Source: Sphingomonas bacterium
GTDB lineage: Bacteria > Pseudomonadota > Alphaproteobacteria > Sphingomonadales > Sphingomonadaceae
Reading direction: 5' to 3'
DNA length: 64,000 bases
NCBI RefSeq assembly: GCF_028292945.1
Contig: NZ_JAQGLJ010000022.1
Span: 14,436-78,435, forward strand
Under the pieces are notes generated by a model. That model saw only the letters and a program-made list of their open reading frames with translations. It was not told the origin of the DNA and ran no database searches. Shown here in pieces: positions 15,701-39,983 of the stretch. The position numbers were made by a program, and so were the translations under genes. Position 1 is the stretch's first letter; each line of letters begins with the position of its first letter.

Positions 15701-15719
15701 TGGCAACTTCCAATCGTGG

Positions 15720-16515: not shown

Positions 16516-16539
16516 GATCGTTGGCGGGAGTGCACCGCC

Positions 16540-16863: not shown

Positions 16864-16892
16864 TGGTTTCCGCTTGTGTTTCGGGTCACGAC

Positions 16893-19865: not shown

Positions 19866-19875
19866 CTCCTTGCAA

Positions 19876-20745: not shown

Positions 20746-20802
20746 GCGTCCTCTCACTCGCCCGTCATTGCGGGCAGTTGGCCGGCAGGCCCATTAAGTT
20801 CG

Positions 20803-20815
20803 ATATACTGTATAT
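20803..20815. promoter_or_regulatory. 13-bp AT-rich palindrome ATATAC-T-GTATAT between the oxygenase operon and the TonB-dependent receptor gene
   Basis: Perfect inverted repeat 58-70 bp upstream of the hydrolase ATG, in a conspicuously AT-rich gap. The operator role is inferred. Confidence 0.3.
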
Positions 20816-20929
20816 ATGCTTCCTCTTGTCAAGGCGTCCTGATGCCGCTCCGCGCGGGGACCCGATTAGTTGACACAAAGGGAATACGATATATGAGACA
20901 TTGCTTAAAGCAGATCCGGGGAGGGATAT

Positions 20930-23134: not shown

Positions 23135-23194
23135 AGTCTCCAGTCCGGCCGACGTCTGGCTAGGCCTCTCATCAATCAAGCGCATGGTAGAATC

Positions 23195-24022: not shown

Positions 24023-24230
24023 CGGCGGGTTCCAACCGGGAACCACAGCAAACGGCGATCCGGGAATCGGATCGAGCGCCGTCGGCGGCCCGTCGACGGC
24101 AAGTTATAACGGTGATCGGCGACCCCCGACCGGGGCTGTTCGACTGTTGATCAACGGCCCGAATGCTCGACCGCTGCCTGCCGCCTGGGCGCCATCGCGG
24201 TGGCTATCGATCTTTTGAAGGAGGCGGCGC

Positions 24231-25808
24231 ATGCTTCGGGGAATGCAGGACTGGCCGCTCAGGATCTCCCGGATCTTGGACCACGCCGCGCGGGAGCATG
24301 GACAACGCGAGATCGTCAGTCGATATGCCGATGGCCAGGTCGTTCGCACGAACTGGGCCGGGATCGATCGCGACGCTCGCCGCCTTGCCAACGCGGCGAC
24401 GCGTCTGGGTCTCGCGCGGGGCGACCGGATCGCGACGCTGGCGATGAATCATGACCGCCATCTGGTCGCCTGGTATGGGGTGATCGGGATGGGCGGCGTG
24501 CTTCATACCCTCAATCCCAGGCTATCTGACGATCACCTCGTCTACATCGTCAACCACGCGCAGGATCGGGCGGTCTTCTATGACCGGGCGTTCGCGTCGC
24601 TCGTCGAACGGATCAAGCCGCGCATCCCGACGGTGCAGCATTTCATTTGCTTCGATCCCGGTCAGGACGATCAGTTCCAAGATCTGCTGAGAGCGGAGAC
24701 CGAGGATTTCGAATGGGTGGAGGGCGACGAACGCGAACCCGCCATGTTGTGCTACACCAGCGGCACGACCGGCGATCCGAAGGGGGTGCTGTACGAGCAT
24801 CGCTCGACCGTCCTTCACGCGATCACAGCCAGCCTGCCCGACCTCTTCGATCTGTCCGCGCGCGCGGTCGTGATGCCAATCGTGCCGATGTTCCATGCCG
24901 CGGCCTGGGGGCTGCCGTTCGCTGCGGGGGTGACGGGAGCGACCCTGGTCTTCACCACCGAGACAGCCCCGGAGGTGATCCGCGATCTCATTCATGCCGA
25001 GCATGTGACCCATTCAGCGGCCGTTCCCACCGTCTGGCTCGCGCTTATGGGACAGGGCGACGATGATGGCGCCGGTTATAGATCGTTGCGTGTCTTGGTA
25101 ATCGGTGGCGCAGCGGCGCCGCGCACCATGATCGAGCATTTCGACGGTCGCGGCATTCGTGTAGCGCATGCTTGGGGGATGACCGAAATGTCACCCATCG
25201 GCACCCTCGTCTCACCTGATCTCGACTGGCAGGCGTTGCCGCAAAACGAACGCACCGATCGACTGGCGCGGCAGGGACGGCCGCCCTTCGGCATCGAGCT
25301 GCGTACCGTGGACAACGAGGGCAGGGCGCTGCCCCGTGACGGCCGTTCGAGCGGACTGTTGCAGTCGCGCGGCGCTTGGGTCATCGACCGTTATTTCCTC
25401 GATTCGCAGACGATGGCGGCCGGCGTTGACGGGTGGTTCGACACCGGCGACGTCGCGATCCTCCATCCCGATGGCTCGATGCAGATCACGGACCGGGCCA
25501 AGGACGTCATCAAGTCCGGGGGCGAATGGATCAGCTCGATCCAGCTTGAGAACGCCGCATTGGGTTGCGAAGGCGTGGTCGAAGCCGCTGCGATCAGCGT
25601 TCCCGATACCAAGTGGGGCGAGCGGCCCGTGCTTGTGGTCGTCAGGTCGGACAGGTTTCGCGTCACAGAAGAGACGATCCTTCGGCACCTTGCCAACTGC
25701 GTGGCCAGATGGTGGATCCCCGACAGGATCCTGTTCGTCGACTCCCTACCCTACGGCGTGACTGGAAAGATCCAGAAGGCAGTGTTGCGCGAACAGCTTC
25801 GGCAATGA
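24231..25808 (+). CDS. AMP-dependent acyl-CoA synthetase/ligase (fatty-acid-CoA-ligase-like)
   Basis: 525 aa. AMP-binding motif [12 protein letters not shown], plus WGMTE and DTGD..DGS..ITDRAKD and [16 protein letters not shown] lies upstream of the ATG. Confidence 0.9.
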
Positions 25809-26529
25809 TGGCCCAGCCAAGGGCGCCGTGCTTCTTGACCTCGGGCGCCGGCCGATCACGCGCTTTGGCGCTGGTCGGCATTGGCACGCCGGTCGCGCCG
25901 CTGGGGACCTTAGAGCGAGCGGCAGCGCCGGCAGTCGCTTCGTTGATGTCGTCCTTCATGTTCATTCTCCAGTGTCGTTGATCGCGGAGTGACTCAGCGG
26001 CCGCCGCTCAGTTCCAGGTGACGACGCGGCGGCCGATCGCGTCGAGCGCCTCGCCGGCCGCCTCGGGCGCTACGCCAGCGCTCGGCGAGCACGGCGGCGG
26101 CGCGGGTGTCCGACCAGGCGCGACGCGGTCGGGATGGAAGCCGCTGGCGACGTCGTGCCAGTGGCGGAAGCCCATGCCCCGGGCGGTTCCCTGGAAGCTG
26201 TCGCTCATCCGGACGCGGTGGCCCATCTGAGCTGCTGCCGGTTCCGTGGACACCGAAATAAGGTGTTTTTGGAACCGGAGGATGGAGATGCAACGACGGC
26301 GAGGCTGGGGCGTGGCTTGTTTGACTATGAACGACGCGGCGGACTTCCTCGAAACCGTGCGACTTATCGCTCCGGATGCGGCGGCTCGACCAAGGAAGAG
26401 AGGCGGGCGCCTGGCTGGGTGAACTGCCGCAATATAACCTTGAGGGATAAGGACGGCGTATCTTCGACTTTGACGGAGGCCTTCCCCGCTCGTCAGGAAC
26501 GGGACGAATAAAGACATTCTTGGGGATAG

Positions 26530-29454
26530 ATGATGAAGCTATATGGGGCCAAGCGCCGCAGCTCGCGCGGAGCGCTGTGCTGTGCGGCAAGCCTAGCAAC
26601 CATCGCCCTGACCTTCGCAACCGGCGCCTCCGCGCAAGCGGTTGCGGAGCAGACGTCCCCTCCGACAGCACCTGCTTTCGAGGTCACTGCGGCGGAACAG
26701 AACACGCAGGAGCAGAAGGCCGAACCGGCGGAGACCCAAGGCGCGGTCGACGTCGTGGTGACGGGTACCCGAGTAGTGCGCGACGGCTTCAAGGCGCCGA
26801 CGCCGACATCGGTCATCGGTGCCGCGGAGATCGCAGCGCGGGCTCCCGGGAACATCGCCGACTTCATCAATGTGCTTCCCTCGCTTGCAGGCAGTGCAAC
26901 GCCTCGATCGACCGGCTCGTTCGTCGGCGGAGGCCTCATCGGCATCAACGCGCTCAACCTGCGCAGCCTGAACCCGAGCCGGACGCTGGTCCTGCTTGAC
27001 GGTCAGCGGGTGGGCGCGTCGTCCCTCACCGGCCTCGTCGACGTCAACCAGTTCCCCCAGCAGCTCGTGAGCCGCGTCGACGTGGTCACCGGCGGTGCTT
27101 CTGCCAGCTGGGGCTCGGACGCGGTCGCTGGCGTGGTCAACTTCGTGCTCGACCGCAACTTTACCGGCGTGAAGGGGCAGGTCCAGGGCGGCGTCACCAC
27201 CTACGGGGACAATCGGAACTGGAACGTCCAGCTGTCCGCGGGAACCAAGTTTGCCGATGGCCGGGGTCATATCGTCGTCAGCGGCGAGCTCGCCCAAGAC
27301 GACGGTACCGAAGGGCTGGGTGATCGCACGTGGTACAATGGCCGCAAGATCATCCTGAACCCAGCCTACAGCGCGACGAACGGACAGCCGCAGCTGCTGG
27401 TTCGCGACAATGTCGGCGTAGCCCTCGCGACGCCGGGCGGCATCATCCTGTCCGGTCCTCTTCGGGGAACATATTTCGGTCCTTCGGGGACGGCGGGCCA
27501 GTTCAACTTCGGATCGCTGACGAGCGGCAGCTTTCACGTCGGGGGGGATTGGCGGTATTCAGACTTCGGCACCGCGATCAACATCGCACCGGAGCTAGGG
27601 CGACAGAACATCTTCGGCCGGATCAGCTACGAGCTTACCGATGACATCGAGGTGTTTGCGCAGGCCTCCTACGGTCGATCCACCGCGACTCAGATAGCCA
27701 CCGTCTACACCAAACTCGGCACGCTCACGATCCAGCCGGACAACGCCTACATCCCCGCGAGCGTCGCGCCGCGGGTCACGGCGCCCTTCACGTACGGCAC
27801 ATATAATGCCGATCTCGGCCGGGTCCCGGTGTACAACAAGCGGACTTCGCGCCGGTACGTGGTGGGCGCGAGCGGCAAGTTCGATGGTCTCGGGTCGCCG
27901 TGGACGTGGGACGTCTACGCCCAGCGCAGCGACAACCATGTCTACAATTCGGTCCGCACGATCGCCACTGCGCGATACACCGAGGCCATCGACGCTGTGC
28001 GCAACCCGGCCGGGCAGATCGTATGCCGGTCCACGCTCATTAACCCTGCCAATGGCTGCTCGCCCTTCAATGTGTTCGGAACCGGTGTCGTGAGCCCCGC
28101 TGCGGCAAACTACGTAACGGGTCTCTCGGAAGGCAATAACAGGCTCACCCAGGACGTAGTTGCAGCCACCCTGCGCGGCGAACCCTTCTCAACATGGGCT
28201 GGTCCAGTCTCTATCGCGACGGGCGTCGAGCATCGCCGTGAGAAGGTGAGCGGCAGCAACGATCCCCTTTCGTCGACCCGGGGCTGGGATCAGGGCAACT
28301 ACCAGGCGAGCTTCGGATCGCTCAGCGTGACCGAGGGCTTCCTCGAAACCGTCGTGCCCCTGGCGAAGGACTCGCCCTTCGCGCAGAGCCTCGATCTGAA
28401 CGCAGCCGTGCGCGCCACTGACTACAGCACCTCTGGTTACGTGACGACGTGGAAGGTCGGCCTCACCTATGCACCGGTGGACGACGTATCGTTCCGCGTC
28501 ACCCGTTCACGCGACATCCGAGCACCGAACCTCGCCGAGCTGTTCCAGACCGGCGTCGGTGGCCGGTCAACCGCGCCGGACCCGTTCAGGGCCAACGCGA
28601 GCACCAGTTTCCTGACGAGTCAAAATGGCAACCCGGCACTCACGCCTGAGAAGGCGGACACGTTCGGTGTGGGCGTCGTCCTGAAGCCTCGCTTCCTGCC
28701 GGGCTTTGGCGCCTCGATCGACTACTATCGGATCAAGATCGACGACTCGATCACCACGATCGCGCCGGTGACGTTGCTCAACCAGTGCTTTGCCGGAAAC
28801 ACTGCGCTCTGCTCGGGTATCACCCGCAACGCTGGCGGTGTGATCACGCTCATCACCTCCACCCCGATCAACTTCGCCAAGCAGATCTCCAAGGGAATCG
28901 ATTTCGAGGCCAGCTATCGCAGTGGGCTCTTCGGCGGGAACCTGTCGATCCGCGCGCTCGCCACACGCTACCTCAAAAACTACCAAGACAACGGCATCAA
29001 CCTGCCGACTGACAATGTCGGGAAGAACAGCGCGGACGTGTCGCTTGCGGCGGCAAGCGGCTCGGGGTCGACCTCGCTGCCGAAATGGCGCTACTTCGCC
29101 AGTGTGGGCTGGGATCGTGACTCGTTCGGTGCGGTGTTCTCGGCGCGTGGTTTTAGCGACGGTTTCTACAATCCTGCCTTCGTCGAGTGCACCACGGGTT
29201 GTCCCACTTCGACGACGGACAACCAGACGATCGACAACAATAGCATCCCAGGCGCGATCTACTTCGACGCCAATGTGACCCTGAAGATAACGCCCAAGGT
29301 GGAATCCTTCCTGGTCGTCGATAACCTCCTGAACACCGATCCAGTGCAGATCGGCATTGGGCCGTCGGTTGGCGGCGCCCCACTCTCTGTAAACCAGTCG
29401 CTCTACGACACGCTTGGCCGGGTGTTCCGCGTCGGCTTGCGGTTCAAGCTCTAA
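26530..29454 (+). CDS. large TonB-dependent outer-membrane receptor
   Basis: 974 aa. Signal peptide ending ASAQA, plug region (VVVTGTRVVRDGFKAPTPTSVIG), long beta-barrel, and C-terminus ...RVGLRFKL. Confidence 0.9.
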   Translation: MMKLYGAKRRSSRGALCCAASLATIALTFATGASAQAVAEQTSPPTAPAFEVTAAEQNTQEQKAEPAETQGAVDVVVTGTRVVRDGFKAPTPTSVIGAAEIAARAPGNIADFINVLPSLAGSATPRSTGSFVGGGLIGINALNLRSLNPSRTLVLLDGQRVGASSLTGLVDVNQFPQQLVSRVDVVTGGASASWGSDAVAGVVNFVLDRNFTGVKGQVQGGVTTYGDNRNWNVQLSAGTKFADGRGHIVVSGELAQDDGTEGLGDRTWYNGRKIILNPAYSATNGQPQLLVRDNVGVALATPGGIILSGPLRGTYFGPSGTAGQFNFGSLTSGSFHVGGDWRYSDFGTAINIAPELGRQNIFGRISYELTDDIEVFAQASYGRSTATQIATVYTKLGTLTIQPDNAYIPASVAPRVTAPFTYGTYNADLGRVPVYNKRTSRRYVVGASGKFDGLGSPWTWDVYAQRSDNHVYNSVRTIATARYTEAIDAVRNPAGQIVCRSTLINPANGCSPFNVFGTGVVSPAAANYVTGLSEGNNRLTQDVVAATLRGEPFSTWAGPVSIATGVEHRREKVSGSNDPLSSTRGWDQGNYQASFGSLSVTEGFLETVVPLAKDSPFAQSLDLNAAVRATDYSTSGYVTTWKVGLTYAPVDDVSFRVTRSRDIRAPNLAELFQTGVGGRSTAPDPFRANASTSFLTSQNGNPALTPEKADTFGVGVVLKPRFLPGFGASIDYYRIKIDDSITTIAPVTLLNQCFAGNTALCSGITRNAGGVITLITSTPINFAKQISKGIDFEASYRSGLFGGNLSIRALATRYLKNYQDNGINLPTDNVGKNSADVSLAAASGSGSTSLPKWRYFASVGWDRDSFGAVFSARGFSDGFYNPAFVECTTGCPTSTTDNQTIDNNSIPGAIYFDANVTLKITPKVESFLVVDNLLNTDPVQIGIGPSVGGAPLSVNQSLYDTLGRVFRVGLRFKL

Positions 29455-29521
29455 GCGCGCTCGCCTGGATGCGTCGTTGCGACCCGTAAGTGATACGGGT
29501 CGCGGCAGCGCCAGACCACAC

Positions 29522-29568
29522 AGAACGACCATGCGACCGCATAGCCGGCAGCATGGTCGTTCTTCTTT
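29522..29568 (+). terminator. intrinsic-terminator-like hairpin downstream of the large TonB-dependent receptor
   Basis: Perfect 13-bp stem AGAACGACCATGC(29522-29534)/GCATGGTCGTTCT(29551-29563) followed by TCTTT. A second perfect 10-bp hairpin, GCGACCCGTA/TACGGGTCGC, lies at 29479-29503. Confidence 0.5.
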
Positions 29569-29746
29569 GGCCTACCTAGTCTTCCTGGCCCTCAGAGCCA
29601 CTTCCTGGTTGCCCCCTCCTTCACCTGCGACCGCGCTATTCGGAGAGGGTGGTGGCCATCCAGATCGCCGCTCACGGCGCTCACGCGTCGGGCCGCAGGC
29701 ATGTCTCTACGCCGTTGGCATCGGAGGAGGTCCTCGGTTCCCGAGC

Positions 29747-30664
29747 CTAGCGCCGATTGAGAATGGCGTCCGATACGGACCCCGCGGTCGCGCGGATCTC
29801 CGCCGCGAACGCCTCCGCGATCTTCGCATTCCTGCCCTCTGAGCTGCGGCACAGCTGGAACTTGTACATCACACTTGGCTCGAACGGTTTCACCGCAAGC
29901 CTGGCCTCGAACCCACTGATCATGAGCGGGTGCACCAGCGATACTCCGAAGCCGGCGGCGACGAACTCGCACACGGACAGCGCGGCGGTCGCGGAGACCA
30001 CGATACGCGGAGCGATCCCGTGATTACGGAACGTGCTCGAGACCATGTCGCCGACCGAATTGTCAGGCTCGAACGCCACGAACGCCGATTGGTCGAGGTC
30101 GTCGGGAGTGATGCACGAACGGGCGGCGAGCGGGTGCTCCGGCGGAAGAATGCATACCAGTGGCAGCTCCATCAAAGGTTCAAGCCTGACGTGAGGGACA
30201 CTACTCTGACCGTTGACCAGGCCCACATCCAGCTTCCGGGCGGCCACCCGTTCCGCAACCCAATGCGAACTCATCGCATGGACGGCGCAGAACACGTCAC
30301 CGTGCTTCTCGACGAAGTTGCTCGCGACCCGCTGGATGAATGCCCCGGATAGTGCTGGCAGGACACCCACCGCGATGCGGCTGAGCGTCTCGCGGTGGAG
30401 CGCATCGACCGCGCTTTCGACCTGGCGAACGCCAGCGAATATTCGTTCCACCTCGTCATGTAGGCGCAGCGCGTGCTCGGTGGGGACGAGGCGCTTCTTG
30501 ACCCGATCGAATAACCGCAGTCCGGTATCCGCCTCGAGGTGAGCGATGAGCTTGCTCATGGCCGGCTGCGAGATGTGGAGGACCTCTGCGCCTCTGCTGA
30601 CCGTCCCAGTGTCGATCACCGCCTTGAAGGCCTCGATCTGGCGCAGGTTGATGTGACGGCGCAT
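29747..30664 (-). CDS. LysR family transcriptional regulator
   Basis: 305 aa. The N-terminal HTH reads MRRHINLRQIEAFKAVIDTGTVSRGAEVLHISQPAMSKLIAHLE, followed by a LysR substrate-binding domain. GGGAGG lies 6 nt upstream of the ATG. The gene is divergent from the MFS-hyu operon. Confidence 0.9.
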   Translation of the reverse strand: MRRHINLRQIEAFKAVIDTGTVSRGAEVLHISQPAMSKLIAHLEADTGLRLFDRVKKRLVPTEHALRLHDEVERIFAGVRQVESAVDALHRETLSRIAVGVLPALSGAFIQRVASNFVEKHGDVFCAVHAMSSHWVAERVAARKLDVGLVNGQSSVPHVRLEPLMELPLVCILPPEHPLAARSCITPDDLDQSAFVAFEPDNSVGDMVSSTFRNHGIAPRIVVSATAALSVCEFVAAGFGVSLVHPLMISGFEARLAVKPFEPSVMYKFQLCRSSEGRNAKIAEAFAAEIRATAGSVSDAILNRR

Positions 30665-30974
30665 TCATAACCTCCCAGAATGTCTTTGGCCGCATGAACT
30701 TTGGCATCATCGCAGGACCGACGCAAGTTTCCCGCAAAAACGGGCTTGCTACCGGAAGGGTTGATAACTCCCGAGAATGCTACACCTTCGTTTTCTTATT
30801 GGATGATGCCACCCGTAGGGCGTAGCGTTTCAGATCAGCTTCGCCGAGGAAGCGCGAACGCGGAGCGTAAAAGATGTCGGCCTTATCCACTGAAAAGCGC
30901 CTTCCACGTCGTGAAGCCGGCGATCACCAGTCGCGAAACCATCACGGCGCTGTGCCGTCAGCAGGTGCGAAAAT

Positions 30975-32315
30975 ATGAACCATCCACAGATGGCGGAAAA
31001 CCGTCGGGAGCCACAGGTCAGTCCCGAGGCTTGGTGGACGCTTGCCGTGCTGTGCCTGTTCTATGTCCTTTCCTACCTCGACAGATACCTGCTGACGATG
31101 CTGGTCGACCCGATCCAGAAAGATCTCGGCATCGGTGACTTCGAGATGGGGCTCGTTCTTGGACCCGCCTTCGGAATCGCATTGGGCGTCGCCGCCCTGC
31201 CATTCGGCTGGATGGTCGACAGGTCGCCTCGTCGCAAGGTCCTCTTCTTCGGCGTGGCCTTTTGGTCGTTCGCGACCGCCGCCACGGGGTTCGCTCGGTC
31301 GACGCTGGGCTTGGGGCTCGCGCGCCTTGGTGTGGGTGCCGGAGAAGCGGCCCTCGGTCCCGCCGCCGCCTCTCTGCTGGCCGACAAGTTCCCGCGCCGC
31401 CGCCTCACCACGGCGCTCGCGATATTCCAGGCAAGCAATAAGCTAGGGTCCGCGACGGCGTTCGGGGTCGGCGGGCTGCTGATCGGCATGCTCGGTGGCG
31501 CAGCGTTGAGCATCCCGCTCATCGGGAGCGTGCGCCCTTGGCAGATCGCGTTCTTCTGCGTGGGTACTCCCGGCATCCTCGCCGCCTTCCTAGTCTACAC
31601 ATTCTCCGAGCCGGTCCGACGCGGCCGCAAGAGCACCGAGCCGCCCAGGCCGGGCGCGCTGCTCGCATTCCTGAAAGAGCACCGCACCCTGATGCTACTT
31701 ATCTATGGCGGATTCACGCTCATAGCGTTGTGCGGATACTCTTTGGTCGCATGGGTGCCTACGTTCGTCTCGCGACGCTATGGGCTCGAACCGCAGGTGT
31801 ATGGCCCACTACTTAGCGTCGTCAGCATCGTTGCTGCGGGTGCGCTCGTTATCAAGGGCACCATCGTCGACTGGCTCTACGCGCGTGGTCACAAGGACGC
31901 CAACATACTGTTCTACTCGTGGATCGTATTCGGCTCGACGCCGCTGGCGGTCATCGCCTTCTTCGTGCCGGGACCTTGGATATTCTTCGGGATTTATGGG
32001 GTGCTGCTAGCGGTCTCGATCCCGTCGATGCTCTACCTCGCCGCGAGCCTCGCGACGCTCGCGCCCAATGAACTTCGGGGTCAGCTTACCGCCCTTGCCT
32101 ACGCGCTACACGGAATTCTTGGCCTGGGACTCGGGCCCACGATCGTGGGCGCAATCACCGACTTTGGCTTTCAGGACCCGAACAAGATCGGTTGGTCCCT
32201 GGCACTTGTGTGCGGAGTCGGCATGCCCGCCGGGGCGATCCTCCTGAGGTTCGCAATGAAGCCGATGCGCATTGCCGTCGGTGAGGTCGAGGCGATTGAG
32301 CAAGCTCGCGGCTGA
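30975..32315 (+). CDS. MFS transporter
   Basis: 446 aa with about 12 predicted TM segments and an MFS motif region (GWMVDRSPRRKVLF). The start is uncertain; an in-frame ATG lies 5 codons downstream. Confidence 0.85.
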   Translation: MNHPQMAENRREPQVSPEAWWTLAVLCLFYVLSYLDRYLLTMLVDPIQKDLGIGDFEMGLVLGPAFGIALGVAALPFGWMVDRSPRRKVLFFGVAFWSFATAATGFARSTLGLGLARLGVGAGEAALGPAAASLLADKFPRRRLTTALAIFQASNKLGSATAFGVGGLLIGMLGGAALSIPLIGSVRPWQIAFFCVGTPGILAAFLVYTFSEPVRRGRKSTEPPRPGALLAFLKEHRTLMLLIYGGFTLIALCGYSLVAWVPTFVSRRYGLEPQVYGPLLSVVSIVAAGALVIKGTIVDWLYARGHKDANILFYSWIVFGSTPLAVIAFFVPGPWIFFGIYGVLLAVSIPSMLYLAASLATLAPNELRGQLTALAYALHGILGLGLGPTIVGAITDFGFQDPNKIGWSLALVCGVGMPAGAILLRFAMKPMRIAVGEVEAIEQARG

Positions 32316-32453
32316 AGCGCGGTGGAACATAACCTCTGGTGATGATGTGCCGGGGTATTGGCCTTTGATTCCGATACTCGTTGGGAACATCTTTCTCGAA
32401 GAAGAAGAAGACGCCTCCACCGCTGTGGACGTTCTCAACCGCGTGGAGAAAGC

Positions 32454-34493
32454 ATGTATCGGATCGGTATCGACGTGGGTGGCACGTTCACTGACTTTGT
32501 GATGCTCAACGCCGAAGATGGGCACGTCGCCTACTATAAGCGGTCGTCATCTCCACATGACCCGTCCGAGGCGATCGCGCTCGGGCTCGCGGAGTTTCTG
32601 GAGGTGGAGAACGTCAGCGCCGGCTCGATAGGTTTCCTGGGCCATGGGACCACTGTCGCCACGAATATGATCATCGAACGACGGGGCGTATCCACCGGCC
32701 TGCTGACGACCAAGGGGTTTCGCGACGTTCTGGCAATCGGCAGACAGTCACGTCCAGGCCTGTACGACTACCGTGTGCGCAAGCCCGACCCGCTGGTGCC
32801 GCGCCGAAACCGTTTGGAGGTCGACGAGAGGCTTGCCGCAGACGGTTCTGTGCTCTCGCCTCTCGACGAGGCCGACGTCGCCGAGCAGGCCAGGAAGCTC
32901 AAGGAGGCCGGCGTCGAGTCGATCGCAATCTGCTTCCTGCACTCGTATCGAAACGCCGCCCATGAACGGGCCGCGCGCCGGGTCGTCGAAAAGGTGTTCC
33001 CCGAGGCCTATGTCAGCATCTCGTCGCAGGTGCTCCCGGAGTTCCGGGAGTATGAACGGACATCCACGACGGTGCTGAATGCTTATATCGGGCCGAAGAT
33101 GCGCGGCTACACGCGCCAGCTTCGTAGCCGGCTCGAGGAGCTCAAAGTCCCAGTCCAGCCGATGACGATCCATTCGAACGGTGGTCTGCTCTCGCTGGAT
33201 ACCGTCGAGGAACTGCCCGTCCTCACCTGCCTGTCGGGACCTGCCGCCGGCGTGGTCGGCGCGGCCGCGCTCGGGTTGGTTTCCGGGATCCCGAACCTGA
33301 TCACCTTCGATGTCGGGGGCACCAGCACCGACGTCTCGCTCATTGCCGACGGGAAGCCCAGTTACACGTCCAAGCGCGAGATCACGCACTTGCCGCTGAA
33401 GATGCCGATGATCGACATCCACGTCATCGGTGCCGGCGGCGGAAGCATCGCATGGATCGATCATGCAGGGGCGCTCAAGGTCGGCCCCCAGAGCGCCGGT
33501 GCCTATCCGGGCCCGGTCGCCTATGGCCACGGCGGCACCCAACCGACACTCACCGATGCCCAGATCGTCCTCCAGCGCCTAAATCCCGTGGCTATCCTGA
33601 ACGGCCGAATGGCAGTCGACAGGGAGGGCGCCTGGGCAGTCATCAAGGAGAAGATCGCCGACCCGCTCGGGATGTCGGTCGAGGACGCGGCATTCGGCAT
33701 GGTGAGGATCGCGATCGCGAACATGAGCCGCGCGATCCGCTCGATCTCCATCGAGCACGGGCACGATCTGGCGGACTTCACCCTCGCATCGTTCGGCGGC
33801 GCGGGGCCGCTGCACTCGTCCGATGCCGCGATCGAATGCGGCATCAAGCAGATCCTCGTTCCTCAGGAGCCCGGCACGATGTGCGCCCGCGGCATCCTGC
33901 TGTCAGACATCAGCCGGGATTTCGTCCGCACCGAGATGACGCTGGCCAACCCGACCGGTTGGGGACGCCTCCGGTCCCTGTTCGCCGAGATGGTGGCCGA
34001 GGGAGACGCATGGCTCACGCGAGAGAACGTCGAGCGGCCGCTGCGGAGTTTCGATTGCGTGGTCGAGGCCCGCTACAAGGGACAGAATCACGAGATCCGA
34101 ATTCCGATGCCCTCGGAAGATTCCGGTGATCTCGATGAATTGCTGGCGACCTATCGAGACGCCTATCGCGCCGAGTACGGCAACGTGATCTCCACGCGGC
34201 CGGTCGAGGTCGTCAACTGCCGCGTGCGGGCCTCCGGAGCCGTCCCCAAGGCCGACCTTGCGCCGGTGCGGCAGGAGGGGGAGCTCGACGACGCCCTGAT
34301 CGAAAGACGCCAGGTCTATTTTGGTCCAGACGTGGGATGGCGAGAGGCGCGCGTGTTCGCACGCGCCAAGCTGCCGGGCGACGAACGCATCGAAGGCCCC
34401 GCCATTGTCGAGGAGATGAGTTCCACGACCGTGATCCTCCCGTCCCAGACCTTTCATGTCGATGCCATCGGCAACATGATCATAGCCTGCTGA
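32454..34493 (+). CDS. hydantoinase/oxoprolinase family protein, A (HyuA-like) subunit
   Basis: 679 aa from MYRIGIDVGGTFTDFVML..., with ITFDVGGTSTDV further in. This is the typical N-methylhydantoinase A/5-oxoprolinase/acetone-carboxylase beta family. GGAGA lies 4 nt upstream of the ATG. Confidence 0.9.
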   Translation: MYRIGIDVGGTFTDFVMLNAEDGHVAYYKRSSSPHDPSEAIALGLAEFLEVENVSAGSIGFLGHGTTVATNMIIERRGVSTGLLTTKGFRDVLAIGRQSRPGLYDYRVRKPDPLVPRRNRLEVDERLAADGSVLSPLDEADVAEQARKLKEAGVESIAICFLHSYRNAAHERAARRVVEKVFPEAYVSISSQVLPEFREYERTSTTVLNAYIGPKMRGYTRQLRSRLEELKVPVQPMTIHSNGGLLSLDTVEELPVLTCLSGPAAGVVGAAALGLVSGIPNLITFDVGGTSTDVSLIADGKPSYTSKREITHLPLKMPMIDIHVIGAGGGSIAWIDHAGALKVGPQSAGAYPGPVAYGHGGTQPTLTDAQIVLQRLNPVAILNGRMAVDREGAWAVIKEKIADPLGMSVEDAAFGMVRIAIANMSRAIRSISIEHGHDLADFTLASFGGAGPLHSSDAAIECGIKQILVPQEPGTMCARGILLSDISRDFVRTEMTLANPTGWGRLRSLFAEMVAEGDAWLTRENVERPLRSFDCVVEARYKGQNHEIRIPMPSEDSGDLDELLATYRDAYRAEYGNVISTRPVEVVNCRVRASGAVPKADLAPVRQEGELDDALIERRQVYFGPDVGWREARVFARAKLPGDERIEGPAIVEEMSSTTVILPSQTFHVDAIGNMIIAC

Positions 34494-34504
34494 GGAGCCT
34501 GAAC

Positions 34505-36253
34505 TTGACCACCAGCACGCTGCAAACCCCTTCGAAGAAGGCCAAGTTCGATCCGGTGATGATGGAGGTTCTCTCGAACCGCCTGCTATCGATCACCGAG
34601 GACATGGCGATCCACATGATGAAGTCGTCGTTCTCGGCGCAGATCAAGGAACGTCGCGACTTCTCGGTTGGCCTCTTCGACCGTGGCGGCCGGCTCATCG
34701 CTCAGGGAACGCACATCCCCCTGCATCTCGCATCGCTGATCGGCAGCATGGAGGCGATCCTCAGAACCTTCGAGCCCTCATCGTTCGAAGAGGGCAATGC
34801 CTACATCTGCAACGATCCATATCTGTCGGGTGGCTCGCACCTCCCCGACATCTCCATCGTCAGCCCGATCTTCTGGCGCGGCGAGCTGGTGGGGTTCGCG
34901 GCGAACATCGGACACCATTCCGACATCGGCGGGTCGGTGCCCGGCTCCACGTCCGCGATGGCGAAGACGCTGTTCGAGGAAGGCATTCGCATCCCCGCTG
35001 TCCGCATCGCTCACAGGGGCGATATCGATGAGAACGTCCTTGCACTCGTCGCCTCGAATTCCCGTCTTCCGGAAGAGCGTCGTCTCGACCTCAACGTGCA
35101 GATCCTCACGAACCTGAGGGGCGGTAACGCCTACTGCCAGGTGCTGGACCAATCGGGGCTCGAGAGCGTCCGCTCCGCGGTCGACAGCATCATCCACTAT
35201 ACCAGTGCCCGCCTACAGAGCCGCATCGCCGCGCTCGCGCCGGGAGCCCACACCTTCACGACCTATCTGGACGATGACGGCTATGGCGGCGATCCACTGC
35301 CGATCACCGCGACCGTCGAGAGGGTCGGGGCTGAGCTGATCATCGACTTCGCCGGAACCGGCCCCCAGGCGAGAGGGGCGCTCAACGTCCCCAACAGCGC
35401 CGTCAGGGCGACCGTCTACTACTGCGTCAAGGCGATGCTCGATCCCGAACTGCTGCCGAACAGCGGCATGTTCGACGGGATCGTCATCCGCACGCCGGAG
35501 GGCACGATCGTCAATCCAGAGTTCCCTGCGGCCGTCGGCGCTCGAAGCATCACCACACAGAAGATTGCGGGCGCCGTGGTCGGCGCGCTCAATGGCCTGG
35601 TGCTTGAGGAACAGCGCATTGCCTCAAGCAACGACGTGCTCCCGTCCATATTGTTCTCGGGAAAGGTGGCCGGTGGCGGGGTCTACGTGTCCGGCGAGAC
35701 GCTGGGCGGCGGCGGCGGGGCGCTCTTCGACCTCGACGGCATGAGCGCCATACACGTCCATTGCACGAACACGCTCAACATGCCGACCGAGGCACTGGAG
35801 AACGAGTTCCCGCTGATGATCGACGAATATAGCCTGGTGGAGGATTCAGGCGGAGCCGGGCGCCAGCGCGGGGGCCTGGGCATCGCGCGGCAGTTCCGGG
35901 CGCTGCACGACCACACGATCATGAACTGCCGGTCCGACAGCCACAAGCGTGGTGCCGCAGGGATGGAGGGAGGCCATGCCGGTGGCCTGGCGCGCCTGAT
36001 CCGCAACGCGGGCACCGATCACGAGGAAGAGCTCAATTCGAAGGTCGCCGGCGTGATCCTGCGCGCCGGCGACACCGTCCGCATCCAGACGCCGGGCGGC
36101 GGGGGCTTCGGCGACCCTGCCGAGCGGGAGATCCTCGCGATCGCCCGCGACATCCAGGATGGAGTCGTTTCGAAAGCCGCAGCGGAGCTGGACTATGGTG
36201 CTGACCGCGTCGCAGCCGCATCGAGCATAAGCGCTCGGGCCAAAGCAGCGTGA
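34505..36253 (+). CDS. hydantoinase B/oxoprolinase family protein (HyuB-like subunit)
   Basis: A TTG at 34505 has GGAG 7 nt upstream. The family-conserved N-terminal segment FDPVMMEVLSNRL begins before the first ATG (34559). Hydantoinase_B-like sequence runs throughout (ERRDFSVGLFD..., NDPYLSGGSHLPD). Confidence 0.85.
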   Translation: MTTSTLQTPSKKAKFDPVMMEVLSNRLLSITEDMAIHMMKSSFSAQIKERRDFSVGLFDRGGRLIAQGTHIPLHLASLIGSMEAILRTFEPSSFEEGNAYICNDPYLSGGSHLPDISIVSPIFWRGELVGFAANIGHHSDIGGSVPGSTSAMAKTLFEEGIRIPAVRIAHRGDIDENVLALVASNSRLPEERRLDLNVQILTNLRGGNAYCQVLDQSGLESVRSAVDSIIHYTSARLQSRIAALAPGAHTFTTYLDDDGYGGDPLPITATVERVGAELIIDFAGTGPQARGALNVPNSAVRATVYYCVKAMLDPELLPNSGMFDGIVIRTPEGTIVNPEFPAAVGARSITTQKIAGAVVGALNGLVLEEQRIASSNDVLPSILFSGKVAGGGVYVSGETLGGGGGALFDLDGMSAIHVHCTNTLNMPTEALENEFPLMIDEYSLVEDSGGAGRQRGGLGIARQFRALHDHTIMNCRSDSHKRGAAGMEGGHAGGLARLIRNAGTDHEEELNSKVAGVILRAGDTVRIQTPGGGGFGDPAEREILAIARDIQDGVVSKAAAELDYGADRVAAASSISARAKAA

Positions 36254-37671
36254 CGATCGTGAGACCGACAAGCCGCATAGCGCATTGGGTGGCATCGCTT
36301 CCCAGGCAGCGCACACGCGAGGTGCAGTCCCTGGCGGTGGACGGTATCCGCGATCTGATCGGTTGCATGATCGCAGGCACCCTGGAACCACCATCCCAGA
36401 AGGCCATTCGTGTTGCTCTGGCGTGGGGACGGGGTTCGTCCTCGATCGCCGGCATCGACCATACGGTGTCCGCCCCAGCGAGCGCGTTCGCGAACGGCAC
36501 GGCTGCGCACGTCCTGGACTTCGACGACTCCTTCGCGCCACTGACAGGCCACCCATCCGCTCCGATCGTTCCGGCCCTCCTGGCACTGGGGGAAGAGCTT
36601 GGGTCGTCGGGCGCGGCGATCCTCGACGCCTACGTCGTGGGCATCGAGGTCCTGGCGACAATCGCTCGCGTCGCGAATCCATCCCACTACGCAATGGGCT
36701 GGCACAGCACGGCCACCATCGGCAGAATCGGCTCGGCCGCCGCCTGCGCGCGGCTGCTTGGCCTGGATGCAGCCCAGACAACGGCCGCCATCAGCATCGC
36801 AATGAGCAGCTCGGCCGGGACCCGCCTGCAGCTTGGCTCTCCCATGAAGTCCGTGCACGCGGGCTTCGCGGCGCGCGACGCGGTGATCGCCGCTCGACTG
36901 GCCGCCGAAGGCATGACGGGTGGCAGTGAAGTGCTTGCGGGCGAGCGCGGCTTCCAAGGTCTCTACACTATGTCCCACGCCGGCGAGGAGGCATTCACGG
37001 TCCCCGGTGAAGGCGAGCCACTGGCGATCGTGTCGCCTGGGATCACCTTCAAGCCCTATCCGACCTGCGGGAGCACTCACCGGAGTCTCGATGCACTGCT
37101 CTTCCTGAAGACCGAGCATCGCTTCTCGGGCGACGATGTCGACTCCGCCGTGTTGAGTATTCCCGCCCTCAACGTGAAGAACCTGATCTACGATCGACCC
37201 GCGTCGGGTCTCGAAGCGAAGTTCAGCATGCCCTACTGCGCCGCGCTGGCGCTTGAGCAGGGCTCCCTGCGCCTCGGAGACTTCGACGACGCCGCGATCG
37301 AGCGGCCCAGAATTCAGGCGCTGATGCCGCGGATCGTCATGGAGACGACGCCTGGCTCGGAGCACACCGAAAAAGACTATCTCGATCTGCCGGCACACAC
37401 GACGGTGCGCCTCAAAGACGGTTCCACCCTGTCCGACGAGCGCTATGTCCGAAGGGGTTCGCTCAGCTCGCCCATGTCGGACCAGGAGCATGCCGGCAAG
37501 TTCAGGGACTGCGCCGGGCGCGTATTCGGGCACTCCGAGACGGAGCGGTTGCTCGAGCTCATTTCGAACCTTCCGGTCACCCCGGACGTGCGCCTTTTCA
37601 CGAGCCTGCTGCGGCAGACCAAGAGCCAGGTCGCATCCTCAACCGATGCCAGTCACCATGCAGCACGCTGA
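36250..37671 (+). CDS. MmgE/PrpD family protein
   Basis: 473 aa. The GTG start overlaps the hyuB TGA (GTGA). MmgE/PrpD features: FANGTAAHVLDFDD, GHPSAPIVPALLA, WHSTATIG. Confidence 0.85.
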   Translation: MTIVRPTSRIAHWVASLPRQRTREVQSLAVDGIRDLIGCMIAGTLEPPSQKAIRVALAWGRGSSSIAGIDHTVSAPASAFANGTAAHVLDFDDSFAPLTGHPSAPIVPALLALGEELGSSGAAILDAYVVGIEVLATIARVANPSHYAMGWHSTATIGRIGSAAACARLLGLDAAQTTAAISIAMSSSAGTRLQLGSPMKSVHAGFAARDAVIAARLAAEGMTGGSEVLAGERGFQGLYTMSHAGEEAFTVPGEGEPLAIVSPGITFKPYPTCGSTHRSLDALLFLKTEHRFSGDDVDSAVLSIPALNVKNLIYDRPASGLEAKFSMPYCAALALEQGSLRLGDFDDAAIERPRIQALMPRIVMETTPGSEHTEKDYLDLPAHTTVRLKDGSTLSDERYVRRGSLSSPMSDQEHAGKFRDCAGRVFGHSETERLLELISNLPVTPDVRLFTSLLRQTKSQVASSTDASHHAAR

Positions 37672-39154
37672 GATGGCCTTCAGCGCGGCTCGCCTGTCGA
37701 AGCCCCCCAGCGAACACGTCCAGCAGTTCTACCAGCTGCCGGCGCTGCAGCGCGAGAGGCGCCAATTCGATCAGTTCTCGAAGATCGATCTCGCTCACGC
37801 CGTCATGCTCGTGGAGCAGGGCATCGTCACCGCCGAGGTCGGTCGTCAGCTGCTTCCCACGCTCCTCGAGATACGCACGCTCGGCTATGACGGGCTCGGC
37901 GTCGATCCAGCGCGCGGGAGCCTTCTGTTCCAGATCGAAGCGTTCCTCGCGTCCAAAGTCGGTGAGGATGCCGCCGGTGCGCTTCACACCGCCCGGAGCC
38001 GCATAGACCAGAGCGCGACAGCGCGCCGCCTGTTCAAGCGCGATGGCCTGATCCGCGTCATGGCGGGCATCCTCGAGCTCACGGACGTGCTGATCGAGGT
38101 CGCCGAGCGACACAGCTCGACCATCATGCCCAGCTACACCCACATGCAGCAGGCCCAGCCCGGGAACTTCGGCCACTACGTCCTCAGCTTCGCATCCCGG
38201 CTCGAGGCCGACTTCGACCGATGCCTGGAGATCCTCGTCCGGGTCAACCAAAGCCCCCTGGGGGCGGTGGGACTGTCCGGTACGTCGTGGCCTATCAATC
38301 GCGACCGGACAGCCGAGCTGCTTGGGTTCGACGGCATCGTCTACAACTCCAAGCTCGGGCGGGAGGCTTACTACGCCGCAGAGATCGCAGCATGCCTCTC
38401 GCTCGTCATGAGCGACCTGAACGACCTCGCCACCGATCTGCATATCTGGTCCAGCAGCGAGTTCGCCCTCGTCGAGCTTGATGATTCCTACTGCAGCACG
38501 AGCAGCATCTTTCCGCAGAAGAAGAACCCGGTCACGCTCGAGACGATCAAGGCTGCCGCCGGACCCGCCGTGACCTGGTTCGCCACCGCGCTCGCCACCT
38601 TCCGCGGCGAGGGCACCGGTGACCAAGCGATCCGCGCCGTGTCCCTTCTCGACCCTGCCTTCGACACCGTCGCAAACATGCTGGAGCTTTCTGCAGGCAT
38701 AATGGCGACGCTCAAGGTCCATGAGCGTCGCATGGAGGAGATCCTCGATGCGAGCTGGTCGACATCCAGCAACCTGGCGGATGTCCTTGTGCAGAGCCAC
38801 GGCCTGTCTTTCAGGCAGGCCCACCACGTCGTCGGCCGCTTCGTGCGCATCGCGATGGCGGACAACATCTCGAGGGGCCAGGCAGGGACGGAGCTGCTGT
38901 GCCGCGCCAGCCGCGAGACAATCGGCAGTGACCTGAAGATCTCGGGCATCGAACTGGCAGCCGCGCTGGATCCAAGGGAGTTCGTCCGGACCAGGATTAG
39001 CGCGGGAAGCGTGGGACCGACCGAGGTCAGCCACATGCTCGGACGCTCCAAGATTTCGCTGTCGGACAACCGGTCCAAGCTCGATCGCCGCCGTCTGCAG
39101 TTCTCGCAAGCCGAGGAAATGCTAGCCGAGGCGGTCCGCAGGATCGTCGCGTAG
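37658..39154 (+). CDS. argininosuccinate-lyase-like protein (aspartase/fumarase, Lyase_1 superfamily)
   Basis: ASL-like blocks: HTARSRIDQ, SYTHMQQAQP, SPLGAVGLSGTSWPINRDRTAELLGF. The SS-loop signature is variant, STSSIFPQKKNP (38495-38530). Candidate starts are 37646, 37658 and 37673, at or overlapping the prpD-like stop. Confidence 0.8.
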   Translation: MQHAEMAFSAARLSKPPSEHVQQFYQLPALQRERRQFDQFSKIDLAHAVMLVEQGIVTAEVGRQLLPTLLEIRTLGYDGLGVDPARGSLLFQIEAFLASKVGEDAAGALHTARSRIDQSATARRLFKRDGLIRVMAGILELTDVLIEVAERHSSTIMPSYTHMQQAQPGNFGHYVLSFASRLEADFDRCLEILVRVNQSPLGAVGLSGTSWPINRDRTAELLGFDGIVYNSKLGREAYYAAEIAACLSLVMSDLNDLATDLHIWSSSEFALVELDDSYCSTSSIFPQKKNPVTLETIKAAAGPAVTWFATALATFRGEGTGDQAIRAVSLLDPAFDTVANMLELSAGIMATLKVHERRMEEILDASWSTSSNLADVLVQSHGLSFRQAHHVVGRFVRIAMADNISRGQAGTELLCRASRETIGSDLKISGIELAAALDPREFVRTRISAGSVGPTEVSHMLGRSKISLSDNRSKLDRRRLQFSQAEEMLAEAVRRIVA

Positions 39155-39576
39155 CTGACCTTCAGCTTCGCGGCGCCTCTGAGACGATGGATAGCCCAGT
39201 ATCGGAGGTCCGGGCTCGCGGGCAGCGGCACCCTGACTCACTCCCGCTGGCGATGCGGCGAGATCAACGACCAACGACAACCCGGCAAGACAAGCACCGC
39301 ACCAGCCCGCTGACGAAGGAGATCAGCCGCCGGACGGCGCGCGCGCTCCGGAGAGACCGGCCGGCGCCATAGGCTCGGCGGCAATCGCGGCTGCCGTCCT
39401 CTATGCCTCGGGCAAGCATAAGCCGCGTTGAGGCTTAAAATCCGCGGCGGCAGTGCGGATATGCCTTCCGGCGCGCTGATTGCCAGCACTGCGCGTCCGC
39501 ACCCGTAGGCGACCGACTGACCACCATCACCCTGGCTCCGACGGGTCTGGAAGGGGCACAAGCACCGCAGCCACGG

Positions 39577-39690
39577 ATGCCCGACGAAGTGCAATTCTCC
39601 GATCGCGAGGCGCTGCTGTTCCATTCGGAGGGACGGCCGGGCACGATCGAGATCGTCGCGTCGAAGCCGATGGCGAGGCAGCGCCACCTA
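39577..39690 (+). pseudogene. N-terminal fragment of an NAD(P)-dependent malic enzyme (about 37 recognisable codons, then no recognisable similarity)
   Basis: MPDEVQFSDREALLFHSEGRPGTIEIVASKPMARQRHL resembles the conserved malic-enzyme N-terminus (..EAL.YH...PGK.E...TKP.A.QRDL). The following SPGVA and GxGxxG regions are absent. Confidence 0.45.
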
Positions 39691-39983
39691 GGCCGCCTTC
39701 GACCGCGCACTGAAAAACCTTGCCGGTCGACGGAGGCTACGAATTCGGACGTCCTTGAGCGGCATGATGAGTTTCCTCGACTGATCCCAAAGGACGCTCG
39801 TCGAAGACTTGGCGGAGCCGTGGTGCCACCAAATTCCATCGAGGCCATCATGGCCTCGCCCGTGGCACCATATGGCCCTGGATGGTCTGAAATCGCCTGA
39901 GACATCCCGGGATCGGTGAAGCTCTTTTATGGCGGAAATTCAGGGTTTTGTCGATCCTCCCGAGACATCTCGGGAAGAACAAA

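Follow-up and report, generated by a model that had tools for sequence, protein, structure and literature searches.

A SacR-type LysR regulon in Sphingomonas joins HyuAB to an MmgE/PrpD protein and a C-N lyase: a candidate catabolic system for lactam, opine-like polycarboxylates

A stretch of 64,000 nucleotides (nt) from Sphingomonas bacterium (assembly GCF_028292945.1, contig NZ_JAQGLJ010000022.1, positions 14,436 to 78,435; hereafter the window, whose own numbering is used below) carries a TonB-dependent receptor gene, a LysR regulator gene, a transporter gene and a four-gene enzyme operon, hyuA-hyuB-mmgE-lyase. The receptor, the transporter and the enzyme operon share a 40-nt upstream motif, the order of the four enzyme genes is kept in six independent loci, and the regulator and lactamase-type enzyme have relatives on opine plasmids of Agrobacterium. 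Judging from these comparisons, there is about an even chance that the genes form an inducible catabolic regulon for an imported lactam, an opine-like polycarboxylate bearing an N-(1,2-dicarboxyethyl) group.

Genes of the window were called from a map of open reading frames (ORFs) together with Pfam and NCBIfam profile scans. A reading of the letters alone, the original prediction, had already named the genes, their coordinates and their families, and all of these were borne out. The TonB-dependent outer-membrane receptor (974 residues; 26530-29454, forward strand) has Plug and TonB_dep_Rec_b-barrel domains. Convergent with it lies the gene of a LysR regulator of the SacR/opine-catabolism subgroup (29747-30664, reverse strand; HTH_1 and LysR_substrate). 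The remaining genes are on the forward strand: a major facilitator superfamily (MFS) transporter (30975-32315; MFS_1 at 134 bits; best NCBIfam match TIGR00893, '2A0114', at 124 bits and under its cut-off), hyuA for the alpha subunit (32454-34493; Hydant_A_N, Hydantoinase_A and Hydant_A_C, all full-length), hyuB for the beta subunit (34505-36253, with a TTG start; Hydantoinase_B, positions 1-519 of 519), an MmgE/PrpD protein (36250-37671; both MmgE_PrpD domains) and a 498-residue C-N lyase of the aspartase/fumarase superfamily (37658-39154; Lyase_1 and ASL_C2). TIGR00893 corresponds to Transporter Classification family 2.A.1.14, the organic anion:cation symporters.

The four enzyme genes are tightly joined. 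An 11-nt gap with GGAG inside separates hyuA from hyuB, and hyuB and mmgE overlap by GTGA (36250-36253). The lyase most likely starts at ATG 37658, which gives a 14-nt overlap with mmgE and a protein of 498 residues, as in its orthologues; the 14-nt overlap is also present in the comparison locus L005. Thus the gap with its Shine-Dalgarno sequence, the GTGA overlap and the overlapping stop and start of the original prediction all stand, the last of them probably extending to 14 nt. Its proposal of five tightly packed genes as one translationally coupled unit holds for the four enzyme genes. The MFS gene is separated from hyuA by 138 nt containing a copy of the regulon motif (32329-32368), so the coupled unit comprises four genes rather than five.

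The motif, ATAACC-N6-RATR-N18-CTTTGA, is a new 40-nt bipartite pattern that emerged from comparison of intergenic regions. At up to three mismatches it matches three times in the 64-kb window, against 0.19 expected, and no shuffle reached three. All three copies lie on the forward strand, upstream of the receptor, the MFS gene and hyuA only. The first (ATAACCTTGAGGGATAAGGACGGCGTATCTTCGACTTTGA, 26434-26473) is an exact match 57 nt upstream of the receptor start; the second (30764-30803) has three mismatches and stands 172 nt before the MFS start codon; the third (32329-32368) is exact and lies 86 nt upstream of hyuA. Their placement suggests three transcription units of one LysR regulon. The motif is predicted to be the promoter/operator of this regulon, the copy at 32329-32368 serving the four-gene enzyme operon. 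Direct reading of the sequence revealed a variant copy, ATAACC-N6-AATG-N16-CTTTGG (30667-30704, forward strand), that starts 3 nt from the LysR start codon and was missed by the pattern search because its spacing is 2 nt shorter. It is probably an autoregulatory site, and a half-site occupies the same place beside the regulator start codon in L005 and in the Ti plasmid pTiEU6.

Conservation of the cassette offers a second line of evidence. The order hyuA-hyuB-mmgE-lyase recurs in at least six independent loci (the window, L005/L006, L093, L001-3, L087/88 and L089), among them the Agrobacterium vitis chromosome and five metagenome contigs, with protein identities of 62-84%. Metagenome contigs come from JGI 3300053088 and 3300053729 and from Logan SRR28678183 and SRR26114444. 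L005 and L006 are metagenome contigs with the same receptor, regulator and MFS transporter as the window. In L005, the receptor and the MFS protein are 78% and 77% identical to those of the window; the MFS gene lies downstream of the lyase and is followed, 98 nt away on the same strand, by a glutamate-dehydrogenase-family gene, a hint at glutamate as product. L093 has a different TonB receptor (27% identity to that of the window) and an MFS gene inside the operon, right after the divergent LysR gene. In the Agrobacterium vitis chromosome loci L001-3, as in L087/88 and L089, a divergent ATP-binding cassette (ABC) importer with an SBP_bac_5 binding protein replaces receptor and MFS transporter, and the LysR gene follows the lyase. 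Constant enzymes with exchanged transporters argue for a functional catabolic unit rather than a chance juxtaposition. The original prediction had proposed a gene-neighbourhood search, and this is its outcome: the four enzyme families do occur together elsewhere.

The motif travels with the cassette. It lies 83-89 nt upstream of hyuA in L001, L005, L087, L089 and L093, and also before each transporter unit: upstream of the receptor genes in L005 and L093, at the corresponding position before the MFS gene of L005, and in both divergent promoters of L001 and L087. L093 has a further copy before a DcuC-like gene. Across about 1.7 Mb of comparison loci, matches with at most two mismatches occur almost only before the corresponding genes. 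The original prediction had placed the TonB receptor next to the cluster; the position is right, and the receptor is more than a neighbour, sharing the motif and being syntenic in two other loci.

Close relatives of the cassette are few. Only about 12 clusters in a collection of 5.8 billion proteins exceed 66% identity to the lyase or 58% to MmgE, and a metagenome scan with the MmgE alignment found no relative above 49% identity, which suggests that the cassette is rare in those collections. A plasmid search with the cluster DNA gave no match, and lyase relatives on plasmids reach at most 55% identity, none of them with HyuAB or MmgE. A genome scan with the lyase alignment, whose peptide patterns are common to canonical ArgH, returned 80 loci, mostly ArgH and none above 55% identity; these served as the outgroup. 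Several cassette loci adjoin conjugation, partition or integrase genes, and the G+C content of the window falls over the cluster, with a dip at 28-36 kb. Together, these features make a mobile cassette plausible.

The regulator leads to the opine plasmids. The window LysR is 59-75% identical to the regulators of L093 and L005, 56% to that of a Terrarubrum plasmid, 51% to that of pAt2788b and 45% to SacR of pTiEU6; 49 of the 68 plasmid records with a LysR relative are from Agrobacterium, mostly succinamopine-type Ti plasmids. In pTiEU6, the motif stands before the sac oxidase operon (no mismatch) and sacA (one mismatch). The closest plasmid LysR, on the Terrarubrum flagellatum plasmid (L181, NZ_CP091852), sits between a sac-like oxidase/ABC operon and an operon for a solute-binding protein (SBP) and an MmgE/PrpD protein, both motif-bearing. 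A SacR-related regulator and a common operator at uptake and catabolic units mark the window system as a SacR-type LysR regulon. The motif was not found within three mismatches in pAt2788b, nor upstream of hyuA in pTiChry5. No gene for an FAD/2Fe-2S opine oxidase occurs between 26 and 40 kb in the window, and the lyase stands in its place. Opine-like compounds had been mentioned in passing in the original prediction; regulator, operator, HyuAB and the A. vitis SBP all point to Agrobacterium opine plasmids.

Some observations concern the regulator family beyond the cassette. In L009, a Trinickia metagenome-assembled genome, a motif copy with one mismatch (13368-13407) precedes a Porin_4 gene and then a dCache chemoreceptor gene (13499-14731 and 14769-16583), which directly follow a lyase-containing ABC operon; a LysR 50% identical to that of the window lies 9 kb upstream. 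Outer-membrane entry, and perhaps chemotaxis, thus appear to be co-regulated in beta-proteobacteria too. In pTiEU6 (L099, NZ_KX388535), HTK22_RS00095, which opens the sac oxidase operon, has been given a RefSeq start (27765) that probably lies some 120 nt upstream of the true one. As annotated, the 5' end of the gene (27643-27765) includes the operator motif, and the FAD-binding motif comes after an ATG near 27643. Plasmid p2 of Burkholderia sp. JP2-270, from rice rhizosphere (L182), has an integrase-flanked island (10001-18018) with a LysR 46% identical to that of the window, a porin, an amino-acid-type binding protein, an octopine/nopaline-dehydrogenase-family gene and a three-gene opine-oxidase set. 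By gene content it is an opine-type catabolic island; no motif copy within three mismatches was found in it.

HyuA and HyuB belong to the family of their names by profile scores (201, 302 and 43 bits for the alpha-subunit domains; 531 bits for Hydantoinase_B) and are predicted to form an ATP-dependent lactam/hydantoin ring-opening enzyme. The best match of HyuA in the PDB is the N-methylhydantoinase 7HK5 (E 1e-154), followed by caprolactamase 6YRA; that of HyuB is likewise an N-methylhydantoinase. The two-subunit architecture with full-length domains is that of ATP-dependent lactamases such as caprolactamase CapAB, N-methylhydantoinase and 5-oxoprolinase (PMC8453981). The window pair differs from the CapAB type in operon context and lies far below the equivalog cut-offs (CapA, 559 vs 1000 bits; CapB, 254 vs 1000); the acetophenone carboxylase (Apc) subunit models give 121-301 bits against cut-offs of 1250-1500.

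The nearest plasmid relatives of HyuB are again from Agrobacterium, which supplies 18 of the 38 plasmid matches: pAtCFBP4996a (62%), pAt2788b (60%), pTiS4 (48%) and pTiChry5 (45%). On pAt2788b, HyuAB is found beside an AgaA-like ABC importer, a SoxA/SoxB-like opine oxidase and an opine-dehydrogenase-family gene; on pTiChry5, beside an AgaA-like ABC importer, a fructoselysine-kinase gene and a SIS-domain gene (deglycase-like, Amadori); and on pAtCFBP4996a, beside an ABC importer only, with the motif upstream of hyuA as in the window. These lactam-opine modules thus share HyuAB, and in part regulator or motif, with the window, and have binding proteins 50% identical to the A. vitis SBP. They differ downstream, having opine oxidase and opine dehydrogenase-family genes or Amadori kinase/deglycase genes rather than MmgE and lyase.

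Transport points in the same direction. The best PDB match of the A. vitis SBP is AgaA (6HLX) at 305 bits, the next being at 156 bits. AgaA is the agropinic-acid binding protein (title of Marty et al. 2019, cited in PMC6683767); agropinic acid is an N-substituted 5-oxoproline. HyuAB of Ti plasmids has been proposed to open the lactam opines succinamopine lactam and succinopine lactam (PMC6733357), and nopaline, succinamopine and leucinopine cyclise spontaneously (PMC4192606). In the window, the TonB receptor is predicted to take up the substrate over the outer membrane and the MFS transporter over the inner membrane.

The MmgE/PrpD protein is closest in the PDB to iminodisuccinate (IDS) epimerase (2HP0/2HP3; E 8e-70, 35% identity). 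Six His/Asp/Lys residues are listed as catalytic or carboxylate-binding in this enzyme type, within a two-base mechanism involving an additional catalytic tyrosine (PMC12290011); this tyrosine is, by our own reading, Tyr145 of IDS epimerase. Residues H85, D88, H99, Y145, H150, K198 and K266 of IDS epimerase are conserved as H87, D90, H101, Y147, H152, K200 and K268. The six His/Asp/Lys positions are invariant in 11 relatives, and the tyrosine is replaced, by His, in two fungal sequences only. The protein thus has both domains, the six residues and the second-base tyrosine of the IDS-epimerase type. Its scores against the equivalogs for the 2-methylcitrate dehydratase PrpD are far lower than the cut-offs (67 vs 950, 37.5 vs 575 and 31 vs 458 bits). 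All known MmgE/PrpD substrates are 2-substituted C4-dicarboxylates, and a 2025 survey found a single sequence for IDS epimerase (PMC12290011). The window protein is predicted to be a C2 epimerase of a 2-substituted succinate, namely an N-substituted aspartate moiety.

MmgE/PrpD proteins occur as three lineages in SacR-type opine clusters, with about 25% mutual identity: the window clade, Terrarubrum and pTiEU6. In Terrarubrum, the mmgE gene and a binding-protein gene form a motif-driven operon (L181, 12899-15922). For the pTiEU6 gene (L099, 41448-42770), whose authors took it to encode a methylcitrate dehydratase, the role of an opine epimerase seems no less likely.

In the PDB, the lyase matches ethylenediamine-N,N'-disuccinate (EDDS) lyase (6G3D/6RX8) best, with E 1e-73 and 33% identity, and every ArgH structure ranks lower. 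That enzyme, from Chelativorans sp. BNC1 (6G3D-6G3I, 6RX8), cleaves N-substituted aspartates to fumarate and an amine (PMC7586795). The signatures of the aspartase/fumarase superfamily are all present in the window protein: SRID (C1), TH (C2) and STSSIFPQKKNP (C3). The last of these, the SS-loop, is nearly identical to the EDDS-lyase loop GTSSIMPQKKNP; its catalytic Ser-Ser, Lys and Asn are kept, and Ser280, Ser281, Ser111, Arg112 and Asn288 of EDDS lyase are conserved. The gene context of the two enzymes differs. The variant SS-loop that the original prediction had singled out is therefore present, and is not unique, being essentially that of EDDS lyase. The enzyme is predicted to release fumarate from an N-substituted aspartate.

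Its kinship to ArgH deserves comment. The argH equivalog TIGR00838 is exceeded (321.7 bits, cut-off 279.5), and public databases name all relatives 'argininosuccinate lyase'. EDDS lyase was deposited under the same name, so the argH model evidently also captures relatives that are not ArgH. A neighbour-joining tree of 98 sequences answers the question, raised in the original prediction, of whether the lyase groups with ArgH: the window family is a clade by itself, distinct from some 55 canonical ArgH sequences, EDDS lyase stands on a separate deep branch, and fungal lyases are sister to the HyuAB-linked bacterial subclade. The separate clade, an Ile in place of the Asn of the ArgH signature SRND and the catabolic operon set the window lyase apart from bona fide ArgH.

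Taken together, these relationships permit a concrete model whose chemical steps, order and substrate we infer from the protein families. The SacR-type LysR would bind the 40-nt site before the receptor, the MFS gene and hyuA-hyuB-mmgE-lyase, and beside its own start codon. The compound would be carried over the outer membrane by the TonB receptor and over the inner membrane by the MFS anion symporter. HyuAB would then open a gamma-lactam (an N-substituted 5-oxoproline) at the expense of ATP to give an N-(1,2-dicarboxyethyl)glutamate-type acid. The MmgE/PrpD protein would epimerise the aspartyl (succinyl) moiety at C2, with His and Tyr as the two bases, as in IDS epimerase. Finally, the EDDS-lyase-like enzyme would eliminate fumarate from the correct epimer and leave the free amino acid, glutamate in this version. 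A 1,2-dicarboxyethyl group is the expected N-substituent, since it would be removed by an epimerase for 2-substituted succinates and a lyase that forms fumarate. The original prediction had sketched the same sequence of import, ATP-dependent ring opening, isomerisation and fumarate-releasing cleavage, which comparative evidence also favours. In an alternative order, the lyase might act first on the lactam to give fumarate and 5-oxoproline, and HyuAB would be a 5-oxoprolinase; this is conceivable because amide nitrogens can be leaving groups in the superfamily, as in the reaction of adenylosuccinate lyase on 5-aminoimidazole-4-(N-succinylcarboxamide) ribotide (SAICAR).

The simplest compound that would fit is succinopine lactam or a stereoisomer or analogue of it, whose ring-opened form would be a one-carbon homologue of IDS. 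Succinopine lactam is reported from succinamopine-type crown galls (PMC6733357). That this very compound is the substrate strikes us as rather unlikely.

Two known systems each match a part of the model. In the degradation of IDS by Agrobacterium tumefaciens BY6, an MmgE/PrpD epimerase and a C-N lyase act as proposed here, epimerising C2 of an N-substituted aspartate and then eliminating fumarate. We know of no ATP-dependent ring-opening step in that pathway, nor of any report of TonB/MFS uptake or SacR-type control. This account of the two enzymes, of which the lyase is stereoselective, follows PMC7347537 and PMC12290011 in their citation of Cokesa et al. 2004 and Lohkamp et al. 2006. Identity between the epimerases is only 35%, the sequence comparison with this pathway covers the epimerase alone, and IDS is a synthetic chelator. 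With IDS epimerase and EDDS lyase as best structural matches, half of the proposed pathway has a precedent. The claim of the original prediction that no described pathway uses the three enzyme types together is to be qualified in this respect: the literature searched contains no joint mention of MmgE, hydantoinase and argininosuccinate lyase, and the epimerase-lyase half is known from the IDS pathway.

The second system, the SacR regulon of pTiEU6 (sacA, sacBCD, sacEFGH, HyuAB, asparaginase and mmgE; PMC6733357), has a regulator 45% identical to that of the window and the same motif. Its succinamopine region also contains HyuAB and an MmgE/PrpD gene, and its substrates include lactams of the opine of Asn/Asp and 2-oxoglutarate. 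C-N cleavage falls there to an FAD/2Fe-2S opine oxidase, in the window to the lyase; furthermore, the pTiEU6 system is Ti-plasmid-borne and has an ABC importer and no TonB receptor.

Several observations weigh against the proposed lactam-opine regulon. The pTiEU6 proteins are distant from those of the window: HyuA is 36% identical, HyuB 26%, and MmgE 27% over about half its length. In the lyase, residues that position the amine in EDDS lyase are replaced, Asp290 by Val and Tyr320 by Asp (in a family-invariant EGTGDQ), and the change of SRND to SRID is likewise invariant in the window's lyase family. K232, R235, R316, D322, Q323 and R326 are invariant there too, and are candidates for lining the amine pocket. 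Asp290 and Tyr320 hold the diamine in EDDS lyase (PMC7586795); with Val and Asp at these positions and 33% identity, the window lyase falls outside EDDS lyase proper. Given the low identities of lyase and epimerase (33% and 35%) and the replaced amine residues, substrate specificity is not transferable from either enzyme. The need for an epimerase is puzzling with succinopine, as the aspartyl centre is L in known opines, and succinopine lactam is itself rare, the reports of it being from crown galls.

The two halves of the cassette are, moreover, found separately. MmgE relatives adjoin HyuAB without a lyase in L094, L102, L104, L105 and L167, and lyase relatives (53-55%) stand alone in ABC operons of Pigmentiphaga, Pseudomonas and Trinickia, where the regulators are unrelated and the SBPs about 25% identical to the A. 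vitis SBP. HyuAB/MmgE and the lyase may therefore not share one substrate. Such separate halves agree with a modular pathway, where HyuAB and MmgE would broaden the range of the lyase to include lactams and epimers, and also with two co-regulated but separate activities. L094 (4187-11383 of a JGI 3300053174 contig) encodes a LysR, HyuA (57%), HyuB (59%), a TctC-family binding protein and MmgE (54%). Just upstream of the L094 module lie a second MmgE-like gene, another TctC, an RraA-like gene and a CN-hydrolase gene.

Other readings of the cluster need to be weighed against this background. In one, the compound broken down would be a chelator or metallophore of the aminopolycarboxylate class (EDDS, IDS or aspergillomarasmine type) and would enter as a metal chelate through the TonB receptor. 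HyuAB would then open a piperazinone-type lactam (anhydro-aspergillomarasmine or EDDS lactam), with epimerase and lyase acting as in IDS degradation. Metal chelates are typical cargo of TonB receptors, the best solved-structure relatives of both MmgE and the lyase are chelator-degradation enzymes, and EDDS lyase takes a wide choice of amines and can form aspergillomarasmines in the reverse direction (PMC7586795). This reading is nevertheless improbable. Regulator, operator, HyuAB and A. vitis SBP are closest to opine systems acting on N-substituted 5-oxoprolines, a porin replaces the receptor or the receptor is absent in other lineages, and Asp290, which binds the distal EDDS amine, is not conserved. 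No Fur/Zur-type control was seen at the locus, where LysR is the sole regulator.

To about the same small degree we entertain the idea of two co-regulated and chemically separate modules, HyuAB and MmgE acting on one compound and the lyase on a directly imported N-substituted aspartate. Besides the lyase-free HyuAB-TctC-MmgE set of L094 and the lyase-only ABC operons, this would account for the 4 of 80 metagenome loci in which HyuAB, with no lyase, adjoins a more distant MmgE relative, and for a lyase beside an MFS gene in Kwoniella. Against it, mmgE and lyase of the window clade overlap by 14 nt and are always adjacent, and the pairing of epimerase and lyase has a precedent in IDS degradation, as far as the paper citing it relates (Cokesa et al. 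2004, cited in PMC7347537).

A hydantoin route appears very unlikely. HyuAB would convert 5-carboxymethylhydantoin to N-carbamoyl-aspartate, MmgE would racemise it, and the lyase would yield fumarate and urea. The best HyuA and HyuB matches being N-methylhydantoinases, N-carbamoyl-aspartate being a 2-N-substituted succinate, and the lyase scoring above the argH cut-off (by analogy to argininosuccinate cleavage) all agree with it. The route would, however, destroy a pyrimidine-pathway intermediate at some cost, no urease, allophanate or other urea-handling gene is found at any locus, the transporter and regulator relatives are opine-type, and kinship to EDDS lyase points to amine leaving groups. 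Despite the TIGR00838 score and the public names, the chance that this is an ordinary arginine-biosynthesis ArgH beside unrelated genes is negligible, being contradicted by synteny (the four-gene order is kept in six contexts) and by the tree, in which the family stands apart from canonical ArgH. EDDS lyase bears the same deposited name; the SRND Asn and the Y/Q loop, which binds the arginine moiety in ArgH, differ as well.

Returning to the lactam-opine regulon, what would be new is that an ATP-dependent lactamase is combined with a pair of epimerase and lyase, that one version of this combination is TonB-dependent, and that the operator is shared; each family, and the inducible opine or aminopolycarboxylate operon as a kind, is known. 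IDS epimerase and EDDS lyase have so far been met, to our knowledge, only in the breakdown of chelators that are rare or man-made. A conserved operon that places relatives of both with a lactamase, a transporter and a regulator of opine type gives these enzymes a natural context and a few testable substrates. We also know of no cleavage of opine C-N bonds other than oxidative, and a lyase route that forms fumarate directly would be a new solution. More broadly, an undescribed non-oxidative opine route of lactam opening, epimerisation and lyase, a natural role for enzymes of the IDS-epimerase and EDDS-lyase types, and a TonB-receptor piracy of lactam opines by non-agrobacterial soil bacteria are tentative proposals that we hold possible but doubtful. 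'Succinopine' itself occurs in one paper only in the literature searched.

If this broader reading holds, non-agrobacterial soil bacteria would have the operator of a SacR-like regulator in common with Ti plasmids, and the reach of the lyase across kingdoms into tremellomycete yeasts (57-60% identity) would mark an overlooked, widespread natural N-(1,2-dicarboxyethyl) amino acid. The motif places loci of Agrobacterium, Terrarubrum, Trinickia and of uncultured bacteria in a single regulatory family and provides a handle for an inducer search. Since its amine pocket is unlike that of EDDS lyase, the lyase family may also find use in the synthesis of N-substituted aspartates.

Between the convergent receptor and LysR genes (29479..29570), reading of the sequence reveals two hairpins, GCGACCCGT-7-ACGGGTCGC and GAACGACCATGC-16-GCATGGTCGTTC, the second followed by TTCTTT. 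They are likely terminators. A scan for consensus sigma-70 promoters and terminators found no promoter match and terminator matches only at background level; it caught only part of the second hairpin, on the reverse strand.

Further from the cassette, the roughly 760 nt after the lyase (39155-39915) are without a convincing gene. An ORF at 39577-39900 (forward strand) has no Pfam or NCBIfam match; its first 35 or so residues (EVQFSDREALLFHSEGRPGTIEIVASKPMARQR) resemble a truncated malic-enzyme start, the N-terminus of E. coli MaeB. This ORF and the dip in G+C content point to a possible insertion of the cassette into an older gene. Upstream of the regulon, the region 18498-25808 encodes another TonB-dependent receptor (20930-23134), the alpha subunit of a Rieske ring-hydroxylating oxygenase, an AMP-dependent ligase and two alpha/beta-hydrolases. 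These genes have no motif and seemingly form a separate catabolic cluster. The gltB DNA matches plasmids/chromids of Azospirillum at 77%.

Relatives of the enzymes also occur in fungi. Lyase homologues of tremellomycete yeasts are 56-60% identical, that of Kwoniella shivajii (L090; 60%) adjoining an MFS gene, and MmgE homologues of about 50% identity occur in the ascomycetes Clonostachys solani (L097) and Niveomyces insectorum (L098). In Niveomyces, the MmgE gene is divergent from a gene for a fused HyuAB of 1293 residues, with an FAD oxidase and an MFS gene nearby; it was not counted as a conserved module because the HyuA part is only 30% identical. Transfer between the kingdoms is likely.

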